From Escherichia phage vB_EcoM_11B_SA_NWU: DNA of 64,000 bases. The notes under the pieces are model-generated. The model saw nothing but the letters and a program-made list of their open reading frames with translations, was not told the origin of the DNA and made no database searches. Positions within the stretch are counted from its first letter, which is position 1. Every line of letters begins with the position of its first letter. The translations under genes were made by a program, and so were the position numbers. This document shows positions 40,571 through 64,000 of the stretch, piece by piece. Location of the stretch: sequence record OR062527. One strand, given 5' to 3'.

Positions 40571-41041
40571 TTAATCATGTTTCCACACCCCATCGGTATT
40601 TGACCAAAGTCGCTGATTATCTGATCCTCGCCACAGCTTTTTAGTCGGAAGATTTTTCTCATACTTCCCATCAATAATAACATCAACATATTTAAGCATT
40701 TCTAGTTGTTTAATATCTTCAAACTTATATCCTGTCCACAACCAAATGCTTTTATTGGGATAAAGATTTTTTACTGTTTGAACCACAGAGTGAATCACGT
40801 CTCTGTTATCAGGATAAAGAGGGTCACCTCCGGTTATAGTTAATCCTTCTATATAATCATTATTCAAACATTCAATCAATTGTTCTAGTGTTTCACCAGT
40901 AAATGGAATACCATTTCTAGCATTCCATGTTGATTTATTATAACACCCTTCGCATTTATGCAAACAACCTGTAACGAAAAGAACGGCCCTGCATCCAGGG
41001 CCATTCACAAAATCGCAAGGATAAAATCTATCATAATTCAT
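40571..41041 (-). CDS. nrdG: anaerobic ribonucleotide reductase activating protein NrdG (156 aa), radical SAM
   Basis: CxxxCxxC cluster (CLHKCEGC); 156 aa; directly downstream of nrdD. Confidence 0.9.
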   Translation of the reverse strand: MNYDRFYPCDFVNGPGCRAVLFVTGCLHKCEGCYNKSTWNARNGIPFTGETLEQLIECLNNDYIEGLTITGGDPLYPDNRDVIHSVVQTVKNLYPNKSIWLWTGYKFEDIKQLEMLKYVDVIIDGKYEKNLPTKKLWRGSDNQRLWSNTDGVWKHD

Positions 41042-42855
41042 TGGTGTTTAACCCTATGCATGATTTCTTTATTTTTACCGAGATTAAATCCGCGTTCGTT
41101 CGGATTTCCAAGATAACCGCATGTTCTTCTTATTGTATTCATCTTTTTAGGATCAGTTTCTCCACAAATAGAACAAACAAATCCGTTTTCAGTAGGAGTC
41201 ATTTCATGTGTACTTCCGCATGTAAAACATTTATCTACTGGCATGTTAACACCAAAATAATCTAAATGTTGTGCAGCATAATCCCATACAGCCTCAAGAC
41301 CTTTTAAGTTATTTTTCATATCAGGAAGTTCAACATAAGAAATGTGACCACCTGTCGCAATGAAATGATATGGTGCTTCGCGAGAAATCTTTTCAAACGG
41401 GGTGATATTTTCTTCTACTGAAACGTGGAAACTGTTAGTGTACCAGCCTTTATCAGTAACATCCTTTACACTTCCATATTTTTCGGTATCAAGTTTACAG
41501 AAGCGATAACAAAGGTTTTCAGCAGGTGTAGAATACAAGCTAAAAGCAAAACCGGTTCTTTCAGTCCACTGCTTAAGACGAGCATTCATTTTAGTTAAAA
41601 TTTCTTGTCCAATATCACGACCGACAAGAATATTCAATTCGTGAATACCAATGTATCCTAGGGACACTGAACTTCTGCCGTTTTTAAATAACTCAATTAT
41701 ATCGTCATCATGTTTAAGACGAACCCCGAATGCACCTTCTTGATAAAGAATAGGAGCAACAGTAGCTTTAACTCCTTTTAAGGAACTAATTCTACACATC
41801 AAAGCTTCAAAACATAAATCCATTCGTTCATTGAATAATTCAGCAAATTTCTGTTCATTGAACTGTGTTCCAATATAAGAATCTAACGCAATACGAGGAA
41901 GATTCAGTGTTACAACACCAAGATTATTACGTCCATCAAGAATTTCATTACCAGTCGAATCTTTCCATACGCTCAAGAAACTACGACATCCCATTGGAGA
42001 AACAGGAATAGATGAGCCGGTGATAGCTTTATTGTTCTTAGCTGAAATAATATCAGGATACATTCTTTTGCTTGCGCACTCTAGAGCAAGCTGCTTAATA
42101 TCATAGTTCGGATCGTCTTTGTAAAGATTAACACCTTCTTCAACGAACATAACGAGCTTAGGAAAAATAGGAGTTATCCCATCACGACCGAGACCTTTAA
42201 TGCGATTTTTCAGAATTGCTTTCTGAATCATTCGTTCAGTCCAGTCAGTTCCCGTACCAAATGTAATTGTTACAAAAGGCGTTTGTCCGTTTGAACTAAA
42301 GAGAGTATTTACTTCATATTCATAAGCTTGGAATGCATCGTATACGTCTTTTTCTGTTTTAGATTGGGCATAATTCAACGCATCAGCGATTTGCCATTTT
42401 TCTGCATCCTCAATATGTTTTGCATAGGTGCGTTTAACATAAGGAGAAAGTACTTTATCTACATTCGCAAAAGTCGTTCCGCCATATTGATGAGAAGCAA
42501 CTTGTGCAGTAATTTGTGCCATAATTGCAGTAGCAACACCGATTGATTTAGGAGTTTCAATCTGTGCATTGCCGAGCTTAAATCCGTTTTCAAGCATTCC
42601 TTTTAAATCTACTAAACAGCAATTAGTAAATGGAAGAGCAGGGGAATAATCAATATCATGGAAATGAATAATTCCGCTTTCATGCGCTTTCATAATAAAA
42701 GACGGGACCATATTTTTGGCAATGTGCTTAGACACAATACCAGCCATAAGGTCCCGTTGAGTTGGAAAAACACGAGAATCTTTATTAGCATTCTCGTTCA
42801 AAAGGTCTTTATTAGTTTTATGAATCAATCCTTCAATTTCTTTTTCAATTGTCAT
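41038..42855 (-). CDS. nrdD: anaerobic ribonucleotide reductase NrdD (605 aa), uninterrupted
   Basis: Glycyl-radical motif RTCGYLG near the C-terminus; single continuous 605-codon ORF (no intron). Confidence 0.9.
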   Translation of the reverse strand: MTIEKEIEGLIHKTNKDLLNENANKDSRVFPTQRDLMAGIVSKHIAKNMVPSFIMKAHESGIIHFHDIDYSPALPFTNCCLVDLKGMLENGFKLGNAQIETPKSIGVATAIMAQITAQVASHQYGGTTFANVDKVLSPYVKRTYAKHIEDAEKWQIADALNYAQSKTEKDVYDAFQAYEYEVNTLFSSNGQTPFVTITFGTGTDWTERMIQKAILKNRIKGLGRDGITPIFPKLVMFVEEGVNLYKDDPNYDIKQLALECASKRMYPDIISAKNNKAITGSSIPVSPMGCRSFLSVWKDSTGNEILDGRNNLGVVTLNLPRIALDSYIGTQFNEQKFAELFNERMDLCFEALMCRISSLKGVKATVAPILYQEGAFGVRLKHDDDIIELFKNGRSSVSLGYIGIHELNILVGRDIGQEILTKMNARLKQWTERTGFAFSLYSTPAENLCYRFCKLDTEKYGSVKDVTDKGWYTNSFHVSVEENITPFEKISREAPYHFIATGGHISYVELPDMKNNLKGLEAVWDYAAQHLDYFGVNMPVDKCFTCGSTHEMTPTENGFVCSICGETDPKKMNTIRRTCGYLGNPNERGFNLGKNKEIMHRVKHQ

Positions 42856-43839: not shown

Positions 43840-43960
43840 TTAAGTCATTTATCGTTGGTTCATTATACACCGTTTCTTCATCAGTGTAAACCGGTTCTTC
43901 CGGCTCTGGCTCTACAGTTTCCCATCTAGCCGCCCACCAAGGTTTTATAGCGTAATCCAT
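43805..43960 (-). CDS. acidic micro-ORF (51 aa) in a locally GC-rich stretch, weak support
   Basis: Hand-translated MDYAIKPWWAARWETVEPEPEEP...; overlaps both neighbours. Confidence 0.3.
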   Translation of the reverse strand: MDYAIKPWWAARWETVEPEPEEPVYTDEETVYNEPTINDLIDMEMGHDYSR

Positions 43961-44265
43961 TCTCGTACTATCTGAGTTACTACACGTTCCCGGGGCTCGA
44001 CTAGTTCAACAGTCGGAACTGCATAATACCAGTCAGAATGGTAAGAACCCGAACGGCATTCATTTACGGAAACATGTACGTTATGTTTTGGACTAAAATA
44101 AACACACTGACGATATTGGCATTTACCATCTTGCACCCAGTCTTCTATTTCGACAGGTTTAAGATAATCGGAAAAATCGAAATCATAGTTTTCTGAAAAT
44201 GCATCATGGTCTTCAATGATTTCACTCAGAACTGCATCAACATCTAATTTATTTTCAATAGTCAT
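43945..44265 (-). CDS. hypothetical protein (106 aa)
   Basis: Minus-strand ORF. Confidence 0.5.
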   Translation of the reverse strand: MTIENKLDVDAVLSEIIEDHDAFSENYDFDFSDYLKPVEIEDWVQDGKCQYRQCVYFSPKHNVHVSVNECRSGSYHSDWYYAVPTVELVEPRERVVTQIVREWITL

Positions 44266-60330: not shown

Positions 60331-60792
60331 TCATTGAGTTTTAATTACTGCTTTAGAAGCCTTTCCTGGTAAACGACGACTGTTGATAATTGCCATCCTA
60401 CATTGAAGTGACGGGTCTTTAAACTTCTCATTAGGTTTACAAACCGTAAATCCAAGCCAAAGATTTCCATCTGTGATTTCTAAACGTCCAGGACGATATT
60501 CAACCCCATCAATAAAATCCTCGTCAATGTCAGGACGCGGAGGCATACTCAGGAATTCATTAACTTCTAAAACATGGTCTTTTATTTTATGGAATAATTC
60601 AAAAACATATGTCTCATCAATCTCCCGTTGAATTGCACGATCAAGAAGATGTTGAGAATATTTTAGATGAAACGATGAGACTCCTGCTGCTTTTGATGCC
60701 TCACGAATCTCATTGTTAATTTGACGAAACTCCGACTCAAAATGACGACGAAGCTTATTTCGACGGATAAAAACTTCTGTATTGATAGTCAT
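60331..60792 (-). CDS. regB: RegB sequence-specific endoribonuclease (153 aa)
   Basis: 153 aa; sequence matches T4 RegB as recalled; early promoter at 60816-60849. Confidence 0.9.
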   Translation of the reverse strand: MTINTEVFIRRNKLRRHFESEFRQINNEIREASKAAGVSSFHLKYSQHLLDRAIQREIDETYVFELFHKIKDHVLEVNEFLSMPPRPDIDEDFIDGVEYRPGRLEITDGNLWLGFTVCKPNEKFKDPSLQCRMAIINSRRLPGKASKAVIKTQ

Positions 60793-60815
60793 GTTGTTCT
60801 CCTCTTAACTGATAG

Positions 60816-60849
60816 AAAAATTATACCACAGTCAAGAGGAAAAGTAAAC
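60816..60849 (-). promoter_or_regulatory. T4-type early promoter upstream of regB
   Basis: GTTTACTTTTCCTCTTGACTGTGGTATAAT. Confidence 0.55.
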
Positions 60850-60851
60850 AG

Positions 60852-61172
60852 TTATTCTTTAAATCTAATCAATTTATTCATAGACTTTGAAACTTCTGCA
60901 CGAACCTCATGTAAGTTTTTAAGCTGTTCAAGACGCTGCTCATAGTAAGCAATTTCGTCTTCTTCAAGACAGTCCTGCGAATCTTCTTTAAGATAACGTG
61001 CATAGTCCTGGAAAGCTTTACGGACTACTTCCTGGAAGTCATCAAGACTTTGAATTTTCTTAGGAGCGGCAGATACACGACGAGGTGCAGTATAATACTC
61101 ATAACCAAACCCTGCGCTTAATTGAGCCATTAGTATTTTTCCTCTGGTTGGAACACTGCACGACAAGCCCAC
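60852..61172 (-). CDS. vs.x-region protein (106 aa)
   Basis: Minus-strand ORF. Confidence 0.5.
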
Positions 61173-61411
61173 ATACTGGCTTCTTTGAGTTTCGTTTTAG
61201 CAATAGTTAACTGATCGAGGCTTTCAGCATAATTCTTCGCGAAATCACAGTCTTCGCAATTATCTAGTGCTTCCCAGAATTCATCGTATAAAGCGTCAAA
61301 GATAAGTCCTAAACGAACTTCAGCGTCTTTAATAGCATTCACTTTACCGATTTTCTCTTCAGTATGTGGTTTATAACCTTTAATATCTTCAATCATATTT
61401 GACTTCCTCAC
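61130..61411 (-). CDS. vs.x-region small protein (93 aa)
   Basis: Minus-strand ORF in the region where T4 carries vs.4 (Acb2); identity not established. Confidence 0.45.
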
Positions 61412-61610
61412 CAGTACCTAAATCATATTCAACTAAACGAATAGGTTCATGAATGCCATATTCTTGAACAGAAATTTCTGTCGTAGGATAAATTCCATCA
61501 ATATCCCCCATATTCCATGCTTCATTAAATTGTTGCTCACCTGAATTACTAAACCACTCAGTGAAAGCATTTAGTACATCTTCAGAACCTTCAATAATTA
61601 TCTTTGCCAT
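61389..61610 (-). CDS. small acidic protein (73 aa)
   Basis: Minus-strand ORF. Confidence 0.5.
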   Translation of the reverse strand: MAKIIIEGSEDVLNAFTEWFSNSGEQQFNEAWNMGDIDGIYPTTEISVQEYGIHEPIRLVEYDLGTGEEVKYD

Positions 61611-61972
61611 TACAAACTCTCGGTAAAGGTACGAGCGATAACGTCGCGCTGCTGTTCCGGAGTCAGAGAGTTAAAGCGAACTGCATAACCGGATACACGG
61701 ATGGTCAGCTGCGGATATTTTTCCGGATGCTTAACTGCATCTTCCAGAGTTTCACGACGCAGAACGTTAACGTTCAGGTGTTGACCACCTTCAATTTTAA
61801 CTGTAGGCTGTGGCTCAATTTCAATTTCACGGGCATGCAAACCATAGAAAATTTCTGGGTCTACAAAAGAGTCCTCTTTAAAAGTTTTAGAAACGATAAT
61901 TCGTGCTTGAATACCATCTTCAAAATAAATAGTACCTTTGTGTGTGCCTTCAAGAATTTGATATGCTTTCAT
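61610..61972 (-). CDS. GrcA/YfiD-like autonomous glycyl-radical cofactor protein (120 aa), chimeric
   Basis: C-terminal about 66 aa ([18 protein letters not shown]...[31 protein letters not shown]) carries the glycyl-radical motif and is GC-rich; the N-terminal half is AT-rich. Confidence 0.75.
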
Positions 61973-61978
61973 ATAACC

Positions 61979-62308
61979 TCAATTAGAAAATAAATTTATC
62001 CAAGATTGTTCTTTAATTAAAAACGGCTCAGAATCATATGCCATTAAACTTTGAGTAATTAATCCTTTAAATGGTCCATCAATAAATTCCATTGTAAAAT
62101 ATGGAATTTTATTCATTAACCGTGCATTAGGAGCAGTGCATAAAACTCTGCATCCTTTGAATACACCTTTTTGTAATTTGTATTGCTTGGGATAAAATTC
62201 ACTCAAAATATCACTGTTTGCCAAAATTTCAAAATGATTCACCAACTTATTTTTAATAGTTTTTGGCGAAAAATAAAGATATTCAAAAAGCTGCGCATCT
62301 GTCATCAT
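61979..62308 (-). CDS. hypothetical protein (about 109 aa; start at internal Met), coupled to the upstream P-loop gene
   Basis: ATGA overlap with the stop of the 62305-62844 gene. Confidence 0.45.
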   Translation of the reverse strand: MMTDAQLFEYLYFSPKTIKNKLVNHFEILANSDILSEFYPKQYKLQKGVFKGCRVLCTAPNARLMNKIPYFTMEFIDGPFKGLITQSLMAYDSEPFLIKEQSWINLFSN

Positions 62309-62844
62309 TGCATTCCGATTACGAAAAACTGTGGACGAGTAATACCACCAATGCAACATTTACTATTGCAGCAGTAGTGTACAGTGTCCATATGGGCGCT
62401 ATAAATCTTATCCATATCAGGAGATTTAACAGGCTCATCAATTATATACAAAATTCGCGAAAGCGATAAACCTATGAACTTGCTTCCTTTATTACCAATA
62501 AAACTGCGCACAGAATCAGTAAATAAACGAAAACGTATATCATCATTAGAATAACGCGAAAATTCCTTTTTAATGTTATCTGCAGAAATTTTAGCGTAAG
62601 CTGAAGTATTAGAAAGAACAATAACTGTTCCGCCATCATACAGCCAATTAGCAGCAAAGTTAGTCACAGCAACTGATTTTCCGGATTGGCGACCACCGTC
62701 AAGTCGAAGAGTGCAATACTGTTTGAGTAAGTCTTCAAATGGCGGGATATAATCGTTTTTACAAATTTCTTCTACTCTAGCATCAGAATGGTGTGTAAAA
62801 GCATTCATCAGGGATAGATAAGGACCAGTCAAAAATGTTCTCAT
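62305..62844 (-). CDS. P-loop NTPase-like protein (about 179 aa; start at internal Met)
   Basis: Walker A-like GGRQSGKS and Walker B-like YIIDEP; GAGAGA ribosome-binding site; GC-rich structured leader upstream. Confidence 0.5.
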   Translation of the reverse strand: MRTFLTGPYLSLMNAFTHHSDARVEEICKNDYIPPFEDLLKQYCTLRLDGGRQSGKSVAVTNFAANWLYDGGTVIVLSNTSAYAKISADNIKKEFSRYSNDDIRFRLFTDSVRSFIGNKGSKFIGLSLSRILYIIDEPVKSPDMDKIYSAHMDTVHYCCNSKCCIGGITRPQFFVIGMQ

Positions 62845-62979
62845 TTTATTCTCTCTAGATTTGGGCCATTCCATGGCGCATGAATTGTCCATTCCTGCAT
62901 TTACCCATTACCGCACTCAGGCTCGACCTTATCACAGGTTGGCGGGAATACCTCAAATGAGGCTCAGGTTGTTCCCATG

Positions 62980-63453
62980 TTATTTAAATGATTTGACGTA
63001 CTGAACAGAACCTTTACTATTCACAAAGGCAATTTTACCGTTTTTGTTATACATTGTGGCAGTACGTTGATAGCCATAAGTTTGTTTACCAGATTGATAA
63101 CCAACTAATGCAAAATTATCTTCACCCATTTTATTCTGTTTAGCGCGAATGCGTTCATGACCGTGAGCCATAAGAACCTTAGCATCACCAGTTGCAATGG
63201 ATCTACGAGTTTTTTCATCTTCAACTGTATTAACAAAGTCGTCAAATGAATCAAATTTAGCATGAGATTTATTATACAGTTTTCCATCTACTGCATAATT
63301 ATATCCCTGTACATCCATCTCAACTTCTGTACCATCATCCAATACAGCAGTGATTTTCTGTCCTTTTTTAAATTTCAAAAGATCAGTAAAAGATTCAGCA
63401 ATAATTTGAGAATTAATAGCTGCTTCAGTAATAAATTCTTGATATGTTTTCAT
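62980..63453 (-). CDS. capsid internal protein (IPIII-like, 157 aa) with capsid-targeting sequence
   Basis: N-terminus MKTYQEFITE matches the internal-protein CTS; immediately upstream of e as ipIII is in T4. Confidence 0.7.
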   Translation of the reverse strand: MKTYQEFITEAAINSQIIAESFTDLLKFKKGQKITAVLDDGTEVEMDVQGYNYAVDGKLYNKSHAKFDSFDDFVNTVEDEKTRRSIATGDAKVLMAHGHERIRAKQNKMGEDNFALVGYQSGKQTYGYQRTATMYNKNGKIAFVNSKGSVQYVKSFK

Positions 63454-63508
63454 GTGTATCCTTTAAATGTAAATATTTTAATTAATAATTTATCTCTTCA
63501 AATAACTG

Positions 63509-63543
63509 TGAATATACTATCACAATTCTAGGAGAAAGTAAAT
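63509..63543 (-). promoter_or_regulatory. early-type promoter upstream of the internal-protein gene
   Basis: ATTTACTTTCTCCTAGAATTGTGATAGTAT. Confidence 0.45.
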
Positions 63544-63547
63544 AACT

Positions 63548-64000
<453 letters not shown>

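Follow-up and report, generated by a model that had tools for sequence, protein, structure and literature searches.

The 64,000-nucleotide stretch of Escherichia phage vB_EcoM_11B_SA_NWU analysed here (sequence record OR062527; hereafter the window) carries on its complementary strand an ORF for a 120-aa protein, whose C-terminus read from the ORF is exactly that quoted in an initial annotation of this DNA. That annotation had described a GrcA/YfiD-like glycyl-radical gene and had proposed a comparison with T4, but had missed that the ORF is vs.6. Indeed, the product is identical to T4 Vs.6 (NP_049730.1) at 119 of 120 amino acids, and the T4 record annotates this protein as GrcA. Phrog_1209, the orthologous group of T4 vs.6, matches the product over residues 1-120 with an E value of 1.2e-62. 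The gene order vs.8-vs.7-vs.6-vs.5-vs.4-vs.3-regB-vs.1 is the same as in T4 and RB5, and the position between vs.7 and vs.5 within the vs-regB early cluster is kept in T4, SfPhi01 and RB5. The ORF is the T4 gene vs.6 (Y06I) and not a new gene, and neither the gene nor its biochemistry is novel. The gene is present in six of six early T4-like genomes (PMC1524935).

With its own Shine-Dalgarno sequence and stop codon, the ORF encodes a small stand-alone protein of the ~14 kDa class, as is characteristic of the GrcA/YfiD family (TIGR04365, IPR011140). Its stop codon overlaps the start codon of vs.5 in the sequence TAATG, which is annotated likewise in SfPhi01 and RB5, and such a stop/start overlap is typical of tight translational coupling. 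A scan of positions 60800-63600 for promoters and terminators gave 13 promoter-like sites, compared with 11.0 +/- 3.0 in shuffled sequences, and two terminator-like sites, compared with 1.6, neither count being informative. The features discussed below are listed in Table 1.

Table 1. Features of the vs.6 locus and of the nrdD-nrdG locus in the window, with the basis of each assignment.
Feature	Position	Strand	Basis
vs.6 / Y06I orthologue, CDS of a GrcA-like autonomous glycyl-radical cofactor	61610..61972	-	ORF, T4 identity, synteny, phrog_1209
Putative Shine-Dalgarno sequence GAGG, 4 nt 5' of the vs.6 ATG, overlapping the vs.7 stop codon (61979-61981)	61977..61980	-	Sequence reading
AT-rich phage-type 5' half (gene nt 1-178), diverged homologue of the GrcA N-terminal half	61795..61972	-	Composition, profile-profile match
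Patch of host origin, 172 nt (gene nt 179-350), coding for residues 60/61-116 in the glycyl-radical module	61623..61794	-	100% identity to many E. coli grcA
Gly95 codon in RVSGYAV, predicted glycyl-radical site, equivalent to GrcA Gly102 / PflB Gly734	61688..61690	-	Sequence reading, GrcA and PflB alignment
Last four sense codons and stop, ACC GAG AGT TTG TAA, phage-type, outside the conversion tract	61610..61622	-	Four synonymous differences from E. coli ACT GAA AGC CTG
vs.5 start codon overlapping the vs.6 stop codon (TAATG)	61608..61610	-	Sequence reading
NrdD, anaerobic (class III) ribonucleotide reductase	41038..42855	-	Pfam NRDD, E 3.6e-171
NrdG, radical-SAM activase of NrdD	40571..41041	-	Pfam Fer4_12, E 1.2e-48, and Radical_SAM

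The 60 C-terminal residues of the vs.6 product are all identical (60/60) to those of E. coli GrcA, which bears out the module recognized in the initial annotation. Within this half, the Pfam family Gly_radical matches residues 61-101 (E = 2.8e-18), residues 58-120 align to residues 697-759 of PflB (E = 5e-26), and the C-module matches GrcA in PDB 6OWR (E = 8.6e-42). Against NCBIfam TIGR04365, the product scored 153.3 bits over profile positions 25-126 of 126, which is below the 170-bit equivalog cut-off, because its N half has diverged; E. coli GrcA scored 233.9. To the families GrcA2 and GrcA3 (NF008341 and NF038360; ~80 aa), which share the glycyl-radical module but lack the N half of ~60 aa that the phage protein has, vs.6 scored 93-106 bits, under the cut-offs of 145 and 158.

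We know of no phage phenotype for vs.6, the evidence from T4 being in vitro. In PMC8683613, which cites Wagner 2001, T4 Y06I and E. coli YfiD are described as validated spare parts for cleaved pyruvate formate-lyase (PFL); in vitro, Y06I was activated by PFL-AE and rescued PFL that O2 had cleaved. The same paper reports the glycyl-radical role of Gly734 in PFL and shows that the N half of YfiD attaches to cleaved PFL and helps to install the radical (PMC8683613); the N-terminal half of GrcA/YfiD is reported to be disordered. Judging by its 99% identity to T4 Y06I, the vs.6 product of this phage is probably also a PFL spare part that restores PFL cleaved at Gly734. The structured C-module, a duplicate of the PFL glycyl-radical domain, would dock onto PFL cleaved by oxygen at Gly734, and the host activase PflA would then put the radical on Gly95, bringing PFL activity back. 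The likely benefit would be that fermentative output of acetyl-CoA, ATP and formate is maintained during microaerobic infection. Moreover, formate, which is made by PFL, is used by the T4 class III RNR (PMC4390871). As formate is the reductant of phage NrdD, the upkeep of PFL may indirectly serve NrdD as well.

The initial annotation correctly noted that the phage encodes NrdD and NrdG and suggested that the module could repair or modulate either NrdD or host PFL; the PFL half of this suggestion agrees with what has been shown for T4 Y06I, but the NrdD half found no support. A direct role of Vs.6 as a spare part or modulator of phage NrdD, not of host PFL, would suit the presence of nrdD and nrdG in the same window, the O2 cleavage common to all glycyl-radical enzymes and the speculation that spare parts exist for other enzymes of this kind (PMC8683613). 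However, in a BLASTP comparison of Vs.6 with the window's own NrdD, the best match had an E value of 2.6 and lay away from the glycyl site (RRTCGYLG), so that Vs.6 has no similarity to the C-terminal glycyl site of NrdD. Instead, its module is identical to that of GrcA and most resembles PflB 697-759, Y06I has been reported to act on PFL with PFL-AE (PMC8683613), and conversion by a host grcA allele, as proposed below, would keep the module PFL-type. We therefore consider NrdD a very improbable target.

The DNA encoding the module differs sharply in composition from its surroundings. GC content in 100-nt windows reaches 0.49 at 61600-61749, compared with 0.26-0.35 in the flanks. The 3' half of vs.6 has a GC of 0.492 and a GC3 of 0.443, the 5' half a GC of 0.345 and a GC3 of 0.203, and the mean GC of the window is 0.344. 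In GC, the 3' half ranks at the 99.97th percentile among all 183-nt windows. At 0.42, the GC3 of the patch exceeds the mean of 0.236 (sd 0.061) for the long ORFs of the window and is reached by only 0.17% of 57-codon windows. The sole other comparably GC-rich spot of the window, at 43875-44073, had no match in E. coli and no Pfam family.

In BLASTN searches of the 5,426 complete E. coli genomes, gene nt 179-363 (61610-61794) matched grcA in every one, at 97.8% identity (E = 4e-83). Within it, the 172 consecutive nucleotides of the patch are matched without a mismatch (100%) in many E. coli genomes and at 99% or more in 5,156 of the 5,432 matching records, and they form the only stretch of the window with a megablast match to the 5,426 genomes. 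None of the ~43 synonymous sites differs between the patch and E. coli grcA. The donor is grcA and not pflB, which is only ~80% identical to the patch at the DNA level. These data support the view taken in the initial annotation that vs.6 is a mosaic gene with a recent host-to-phage transfer from grcA. The GC-rich range given there, 61613-61840, was right in the rise of GC but not in its extent, as the host-identical DNA spans 61623-61794 and positions 61610-61622 are not host-type.

Comparison with related phages of E. coli suggested that the patch has a history different from that of the DNA around it. Between the window and Mosigvirus, dS is 0-0.10 in the patch and 0.45-0.55 in the 5' half of vs.6, compared with 0.9-2.7 in vs.7, vs.5, vs.4 and regB, and the contrast in divergence is significant (Fisher p = 4e-6). 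On this evidence, the patch is younger than the phage genera Tequatrovirus and Mosigvirus. The two genera are identical to each other over nt 171-350, which corresponds to the E. coli-identical stretch at nt 179-350. At 22 sites diagnostic for E. coli versus Klebsiella, Tequatrovirus and Mosigvirus are E. coli-type at 21-22 (this phage at all 22), whereas other T4-like lineages are divided about 50/50. In O157tp13 and LH01, the best identity of the patch to E. coli is 98.3% and 97.7%, respectively.

The Klebsiella-infecting phages of the genus Jiaodavirus, in contrast, are Klebsiella-type at 15-20 of the 22 diagnostic sites. Their patch is 91-97.5% identical to the Klebsiella allele L264 and 83-88% identical to E. 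coli, with exact runs of up to 77 nt, and it stands out from the 5' half in GC3 (0.57-0.65 versus 0.19-0.25). Its 3' boundary lies at about nt 340-345, compared with nt 350/351 in Tequatrovirus and Mosigvirus. In addition, the S/P polymorphism of Klebsiella is mirrored by the phage alleles. The Klebsiella panel was thin, comprising five to six alleles with species labels taken from the protein name, and none of the Jiaodavirus patches is 100% identical to an allele sampled in it; for the patch of the K. oxytoca phage PKO111, identity to the closest one is only 91%. An earlier reading that no Klebsiella conversion had occurred, based on KP185, whose best match in an 81-host panel was only 87% (to Pseudocitrobacter), was overturned by these labelled Klebsiella alleles. 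These data indicate that the patch type matches the host genus of the phage group, E. coli or Klebsiella. The Klebsiella-type patch of Jiaodavirus, together with its different 3' boundary, points to at least one further independent host-to-phage event at the same place, so that more than one event is seen, with the donor matching the host group in each case (Tequatrovirus and Mosigvirus versus Jiaodavirus). The allele of the metagenomic phage L178 is nearer to a Raoultella allele (95.1% identity over C-module nt 1-164, with a 69-nt run). As a separate observation, the metagenomic phage L024 has a 56-nt exact run with Haemophilus grcA; with ~5,000 pairs screened, its permutation p of 4.7e-4 is not significant, and the match is a lead only.

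Taken together, the ORF is very probably a T4-like vs.6 spare-part gene with an internal segment derived from grcA by host gene conversion, matched to the host genus and recurring in Jiaodavirus. In T-even phages of E. coli, gene nt 179-350 would have been replaced by chromosomal grcA via homologous recombination. The crossovers would fall where conservation is highest, at the beginning of a ten-residue sequence and at RTFT, and the conversion would have left the final codons and the diverged N half phage-type. In Jiaodavirus, a Klebsiella allele would have replaced the equivalent segment with another 3' end-point, which would make the process a recurring one.

The E. coli patch of Tequatrovirus and Mosigvirus, both junctions of which coincide, may come from independent uptake or from phage-phage recombination. 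A single conversion into one T-even lineage, followed by phage-phage spread between the two genera and no ongoing exchange with the host, is an account that deserves serious weight, even though we lean against it. The 5' junction is the same and the 3' junction nearly the same in both genera, most variants within the patch are private phage mutations, and the dS of 0.5 in the 5' half of vs.6, compared with 0.9-2.7 in its neighbours, hints at phage-phage exchange. Moreover, SG1 and fPS-2, which were isolated on Salmonella and Yersinia, respectively, retain the E. coli allele, which indicates that the patch does not track the isolation host over short time scales. However, the junctions would be expected to coincide in any case, since it is there that homology to the host gene stops. 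At gene nt 204 and 219, phage variants are the same as E. coli allelic variants, although hot-spot mutation could also produce them, and both the Jiaodavirus patch with its different 3' boundary and the Raoultella-like allele of L178 argue against one event only.

Beyond recurrence, it is conceivable, but in our judgment rather unlikely, that recurrent, ongoing and adaptive conversion keeps matching the structured half of vs.6 to the grcA of the current host, the ~170-nt identity acting as a recombination portal. If so, a virulent, DNA-modified phage would evolve in concert with its host, and the portal would greatly raise the frequency of further host-to-phage conversion and of phage-phage exchange around vs.6. 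Such conversion would be adaptive since the module must fit the host PFL barrel and PflA. Slopekvirus and Pseudotevenvirus, which are without a fresh patch, would then retain old patches whose codon usage is decaying toward that of the phage. The lineages without a fresh patch still carry host-genus-specific residues at positions 77 and 81, E/K in phages of E. coli and Cronobacter and L/E in phages of Klebsiella.

The sequence on either side of the patch bears on the claim of the initial annotation that a captured host module had been fused to a phage-derived N-terminus. A 3' fragment of host grcA joined to unrelated phage N-terminal sequence, as a new chimeric gene, would account for the sharp break in composition and identity at gene nt 178/179 and for the lack of nucleotide similarity upstream of it, where BLASTN of the 5' half against the 5,426 E. 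coli genomes gave no match. However, comparison of the N halves alone by hhalign gave a probability of 96.9% (E = 1.4e-10) over 60 columns with 28% identity, matching residues 2-67 of bacterial GrcA, and the N half of vs.6 is thus a diverged GrcA-type N-domain of ~60 aa, homologous over its full length; BLASTP and phmmer alignments of the product with GrcA already start at residue 22. Full-length vs.6 homologues occur on ~70 viral contigs of several lineages and in many T4-like and T5-like phages, and the 120-aa architecture is also found in phage lineages without any host-identical DNA. Furthermore, the gene ends in four codons of ancestral phage type, so that the host segment lies within it and does not represent a captured 3' end; Mosigvirus has the ending GAG AGT CTA in common with L016, L017 and L020, which are unconverted. 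The fusion reading is therefore unlikely in the extreme. Instead, a segment of host composition and near-identity is bounded inside vs.6 by phage-type sequence on both sides, and vs.6 appears to be an old full-length phage homologue of grcA, an internal segment of which was overwritten by the host allele.

That the identity arose without any transfer, through purifying selection or convergence under codon or mRNA constraints, is hardly credible and is refuted by the synonymous sites. The amino acid sequence of the module is extremely conserved in phages and bacteria, but the RB16/RB43-like phages have the same amino acids in the module with DNA only 81-83.5% identical, so purifying selection does not explain the identity of the patch; L016 and L017 likewise have an identical peptide at ~83% DNA identity. 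Moreover, the absence of synonymous differences from E. coli has to be set against the 7-17% by which E. coli differs from other genera in this segment of grcA, and host-level GC3 is found in the patch only. An artefact, in which host reads or a chimeric assembly put E. coli sequence into the phage record, is the least probable of all, for although a chimera has been seen at exactly this site (in contig L177), the patch is flanked on both sides by phage sequence in 642 independent phage records, T2 and T4 included, and in this window by phage-type codons and vs.5. Roughly 810 public T-even records carry vs.6, and in two phage records the patch is 90-95% identical, perhaps as a partial or older tract.

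Compared with T4 vs.6, which has the same gene order and also a host-identical patch, the gene of this phage differs at a few synonymous sites (the last codons are ACT GAA AGT TTG in T4 and ACC GAG AGT TTG here) and in one residue, His73 of T4 being Arg in this phage, in other T-evens and in E. coli GrcA. With E. coli GrcA/YfiD the product shares the arrangement of an N half of ~60 aa and a glycyl-radical module equivalent to PFL 693-759, with 172 nt identical, but the phage N half is only ~28% identical at the profile level and 7 aa shorter. The phage gene lies in an early cluster with overlapping stop and start codons and without the host flanking DNA and terminator, and the host regulation of grcA has presumably been lost. 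The C-terminal domain of PflB (693-759), which is the part of PFL replaced by the spare part, has a homologous fold and the same RVSGYAV motif, but the phage module is free-standing and not within a 760-aa enzyme.

Intragenic recombination between host and phage was reportedly described in cyanophage photosynthesis genes by Zeidner in 2005. The cyanophage psbA and psbD are auxiliary metabolic genes of T4-like phages with patchy %G+C, in which segments have been exchanged with the host copy (Sullivan 2006, PMC1484495). In contrast to these, the vs.6 tract is found in enterobacterial T-evens, is short, sharply bounded and up to 100% identical to the host, is confined to one structural domain and exists in genus-specific versions, E. 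coli or Klebsiella. We found no description of the vs.6/grcA mosaic at the DNA level in the accessible literature, although an earlier one may exist, and we regard the host-specific conversion as a new case, of moderate interest, of recombination between host and phage within a gene.

T-even virulent phages break down the host DNA and modify their own. The only DNA that 64 kb of this T-even genome shares with the 5,426 E. coli genomes is a 172-nt tract, bounded to within a few bases and located in the domain that docks onto a host enzyme, and it would represent a clean natural case of homologous host-to-phage gene conversion in virulent phages. The tract offers a tractable assay for the rate at which lytic phages are converted by host DNA and for the relevance of the match to the host allele for spare-part function. 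It can also mislead host-contamination filters or auxiliary-gene calls, and it can seed phage/host chimeric contigs in metagenome assemblies, of which L177 is the one seen. This Mosigvirus-type contig, in which E. coli-type sequence continues past the stop codon, passes from phage to E. coli chromosomal DNA within the patch; considered as a longer conversion tract, it was rejected as a probable assembly chimera because the DNA downstream is E. coli chromosome.

The vs.6 product is identical at 119 of 120 residues to T4 Vs.6 (NP_049730.1; RefSeq name "autonomous glycyl radical cofactor GrcA"), which is the same protein as T4 Y06I. Two spare-part proteins are validated, Y06I and E. coli YfiD/GrcA; both are activated by PFL-AE and restore activity to pyruvate formate-lyase (PFL) cleaved by O2 at Gly734, according to the summary of Wagner et al. 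2001 given in PMC8683613. Residues 1-60 of YfiD form a disordered region needed both to bind cleaved PFL and to install the radical efficiently, and residues 61-127 share the fold of PFL 693-759 (PMC8683613). The vs.6 product matched the GrcA structure 6OWR over aa 22-120 (E 8.6e-42) and PflB 697-759 (E 5e-26), contained a Pfam Gly_radical domain at aa 61-101 (E 2.8e-18) and is a member of phrog_1209. Owing to its diverged N half, it fell short of the 170-bit cut-off of NCBIfam TIGR04365, with 153.3 bits. Neither the gene nor its function is new. The neighbourhood of vs.6 in the window is the T4 vs-regB early cluster, and a scan for promoter and terminator consensus sequences around the gene returned nothing informative.

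Positions of vs.6, its parts and other ORFs discussed in the text
Feature	Position	Strand	Remark
vs.6 ORF	61610..61972	-	120 aa
vs.6 5' half	61795-61972	-	gene nt 1-178
Host-identical tract (patch)	61623-61794	-	172 consecutive bases the same as grcA (pairwise alignment)
Gly95 codon	61688-61690	-	predicted radical site
Shine-Dalgarno GAGG	4 nt upstream of vs.6 start	-	overlaps stop of preceding ORF
vs.6 TAA		-	overlaps ATG of next ORF (TAATG), from the sequence
vs.4 orthologue	61130-61411	-	two genes downstream of vs.6
DUF7412 protein gene	62980-63453	-	157 aa; between vs.8 and lysozyme gene e
Second GC-rich stretch	43875-44073		only other window stretch as GC-rich as the patch
ORF at second GC-rich stretch	43945-44265	-	106 aa

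The initial annotation had claimed similarity to host grcA and a GC step within the ORF, and both were borne out. In BLASTN searches, gene nt 179-363 matched grcA in 5,426 of 5,426 complete E. coli genomes (97.8%, E 4e-83), and the sequence upstream of nt 179 had no match in any of them. Pairwise alignment of vs.6 with grcA showed three zones, namely merely faint in-frame similarity upstream of nt 179, the uninterrupted tract (gene nt 179-350), and the last four sense codons with four synonymous differences (phage ACC GAG AGT TTG versus E. coli ACT GAA AGC CTG). Many E. coli genomes contain the tract without a single mismatch, and 5,156 of the 5,432 records that matched it do so at 99% identity or more. 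A megablast of the whole window, run in three pieces, found nothing in E. coli genomes for any sequence outside the tract. The corresponding E. coli segment itself shares 98.9% identity with another Escherichia species and no more than 93% with other genera, indicating that the donor was E. coli or Shigella. In 100-nt windows, GC was 0.49 at 61600-61749 versus 0.26-0.35 on both flanks. The 3' half of vs.6 has a GC of 0.492 and a GC at third codon positions (GC3) of 0.443, compared with 0.345 and 0.203 in the 5' half and a window mean GC of 0.344. This 3' half lies at the 99.97th percentile of GC among the window's 183-nt windows, and among 57-codon windows taken from the long ORFs of this window, just 0.17% have a GC3 as high as the patch. 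The second GC-rich stretch had no match in E. coli genomes, and its ORF had no Pfam family.

The annotation had further read the gene as a host fragment fused to a phage N-terminus. This is contradicted by a GrcA-like N half, widespread full-length homologues and phage-type last codons, which indicate instead that the host sequence is an internal tract. Profiles of the N half from ten phage and twelve bacterial GrcA proteins aligned over all 60 columns (probability 96.9%, E 1.4e-10), and some metagenomic phage homologues have intermediate, more bacterial-looking N termini. The full-length form of 120-130 aa occurs in many phage lineages without recent host DNA, including T4-like groups, T5-like phages and giant phages, the C-modules (glycyl-radical modules) of which are 64-84% identical to each of 81 host alleles; vs.6 is conserved in six of six T4-like genomes (PMC1524935). 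Mosigvirus vs.6 ends in ACT GAG AGT CTA, of which GAG AGT CTA is common to the unconverted phage lineages L016, L017 and L020. The tract corresponds to GrcA residues about 68-123, entirely within the structured PFL-docking module, and its ends fall in the two most conserved stretches, ...GAAGGTGGTCAACACCTGAACGTTAACGT... and ...CGTACCTTTAC..., where homologous crossovers between the host gene and a ~83%-identical phage copy would be most feasible.

All 18 Tequatrovirus and Mosigvirus alleles share one 5' junction and phage-type last codons. Between the window and Mosigvirus, nucleotide identity is 66-72% in vs.7, vs.5, vs.4 and regB (synonymous divergence, dS, 0.9-2.7), ~88% in the vs.6 5' half (dS 0.45-0.55), 97.7-100% in the patch (dS 0-0.10) and 77% in the last 13 nt of vs.6 (dS saturated). 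The dS of the patch is far under that of the 5' half (Fisher p = 4e-6), indicating that the patch is far younger than the split between the two genera. Purifying selection as the cause of patch identity was ruled out, as L016 and L017 encode the same peptide as the patch at ~83% DNA identity. In the phage collection, patch identity is bimodal, with 642 records at 95% or above (T2, T4 and isolates with Salmonella or Yersinia as their listed host among them), 107 at 80-90%, those listed being Klebsiella phages, and two at 90-95%, which could be partial or older conversion tracts. The T4 reference (L003, NC_000866, 8558-8920) has Arg73His within the patch, and another T4 record is 100% patch-identical; in the 5' half of vB_VIPECOOM02 (L167, 1501-1869), 6 nt are duplicated in frame (EIEIEIE).

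The Tequatrovirus and Mosigvirus patches may represent independent conversions or one tract swapped by phage-phage recombination. Their junctions coincide, and tract variants are mostly private to phages; two variants equal host alleles (nt 219 C, the K-12 allele; nt 204 A, an Escherichia sp. allele). Across 60331-62359, dS between the genera is 0.5 in the vs.6 5' half versus 0.9-2.7 in its neighbours; the whole vs.6 region may have been exchanged between genera later than its neighbours, with the shared patch as a possible recombination anchor, or this low dS may reflect unusual synonymous constraint. Isolates from Salmonella and Yersinia retain the allele of E. coli (98.8% identity, versus 90% with Salmonella), indicating that the patch tracks the host genus and long-term host rather than the isolation strain.

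Judged by sequence, the patch type matches the host genus. Klebsiella-clade grcA alleles (L263, L264, L266, L267 and L255) were obtained from a metagenome scan and two look-ups, and the protein of L263 and L264 is named by NCBI as GrcA of Klebsiella variicola. Seven Jiaodavirus alleles, from phages isolated on K. pneumoniae, K. quasipneumoniae and K. oxytoca and from two metagenome contigs, have the architecture and 5' junction codon of Tequatrovirus and Mosigvirus. Their tract shares 91-97.5% identity with L264 (exact runs of at most 77 nt) and 83-88% with E. coli; its GC3 is 0.57-0.65, compared with 0.19-0.25 in the 5' half and 0.69 in L264. At 22 sites separating E. coli grcA from L264, Tequatrovirus and Mosigvirus are E. 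coli-type at 21-22, Jiaodavirus is Klebsiella-type at 15-20, and Slopekvirus and Pseudotevenvirus are about half and half. The Jiaodavirus 3' boundary (CGT/ACT TTC ACA GAG GCA CTA, at the slash) lies ~6-10 nt upstream of that in Tequatrovirus and Mosigvirus, indicating separate events. Jiaodavirus allele diversity is 2.0% in the 5' half versus 6.2%, nearly all synonymous, in the tract, as exemplified by ValerieMcCarty03 and RCIP0032 (0/177 versus 7/165 differences), and the Klebsiella Ser/Pro polymorphism (SLTSEQQ/SLTPEQQ) is also seen among phage alleles. One allele, L178, is nearer to a Raoultella allele, at 95.1% identity across nt 1-164 of the C-module and with a 69-nt run. Lineages without a fresh tract carry host-genus-specific residues, E/K in E. 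coli and Cronobacter phages and L/E in Klebsiella phages, which would fit older decayed tracts or selection.

Based on its 99% identity to the literature case, the module would dock on cleaved PFL, after which PflA would install the radical on Gly95. The shut-off of host gene expression in infection would be the reason for a phage-borne copy, and active PFL would sustain acetyl-CoA, ATP and formate production. Both NrdD and NrdG are encoded in the window, as initially annotated. The suggested direct repair of NrdD by Vs.6 is without support, there being no similarity to the NrdD glycyl site. The reductant of the T4 class III reductase NrdD is formate, the fermentative source of which is PFL (PMC4390871), and any link between vs.6 and NrdD would be indirect, by way of this formate.

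The vs.6 mosaic resembles cyanophage psbA and psbD, in which patchy %G+C and intragenic recombination between host and phage are established (PMC1484495). No description of a vs.6/grcA DNA mosaic or of host-specific versions was found in the accessible literature, which included neither the 2003 T4 genome review nor Wagner 2001. L024 (IMGVR_UViG_3300008607_000007), a member of an unrelated group of metagenomic phages, differs from Haemophilus grcA (L142, L144, L147) at one of 71 sites over C-module nt 97-167, with a 56-nt exact run, and its siblings L022-L027 and L034 differ at 10 of 71. Ten consecutive differences between L024 and the sibling are all toward the host state, and this may be another host-to-phage tract; the permutation p of 4.7e-4 is not significant once corrected for ~5,000 pairs. 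In L177 (metagenome contig OCHD01000040.1, 170,927 bp; 401-1154), a Mosigvirus-type vs.6 turns into E. coli chromosome within the patch, and what follows the stop codon is unrelated to vs.5 and matches the grcA downstream and terminator region exactly. The 172-nt identity between phage and host probably seeded a chimeric assembly here, though L177 may be a real recombinant. L096 (CP191473.1, titled Salmonella enterica strain s1; 301-684) is a grcA with Klebsiella-type LLDAVEH residues and a C-module just 84% identical to another Salmonella allele, L268; either the record is mislabelled or a foreign grcA allele is present. Close to vs.6, the vs.4 orthologue matches the Pfam Acb2/Tad1 hairpin domain (PF24729, E 8.3e-20), a family that takes in phage sponges against cyclic-nucleotide immune signals. 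The DUF7412 protein gene (E 1.1e-95) occupies a slot held by denV, ipII and ipIII in T4, by an endonuclease in SfPhi01 and by a gene labelled Ip4 in RB5, and the vs.8-e interval looks like a variable internal-protein slot.
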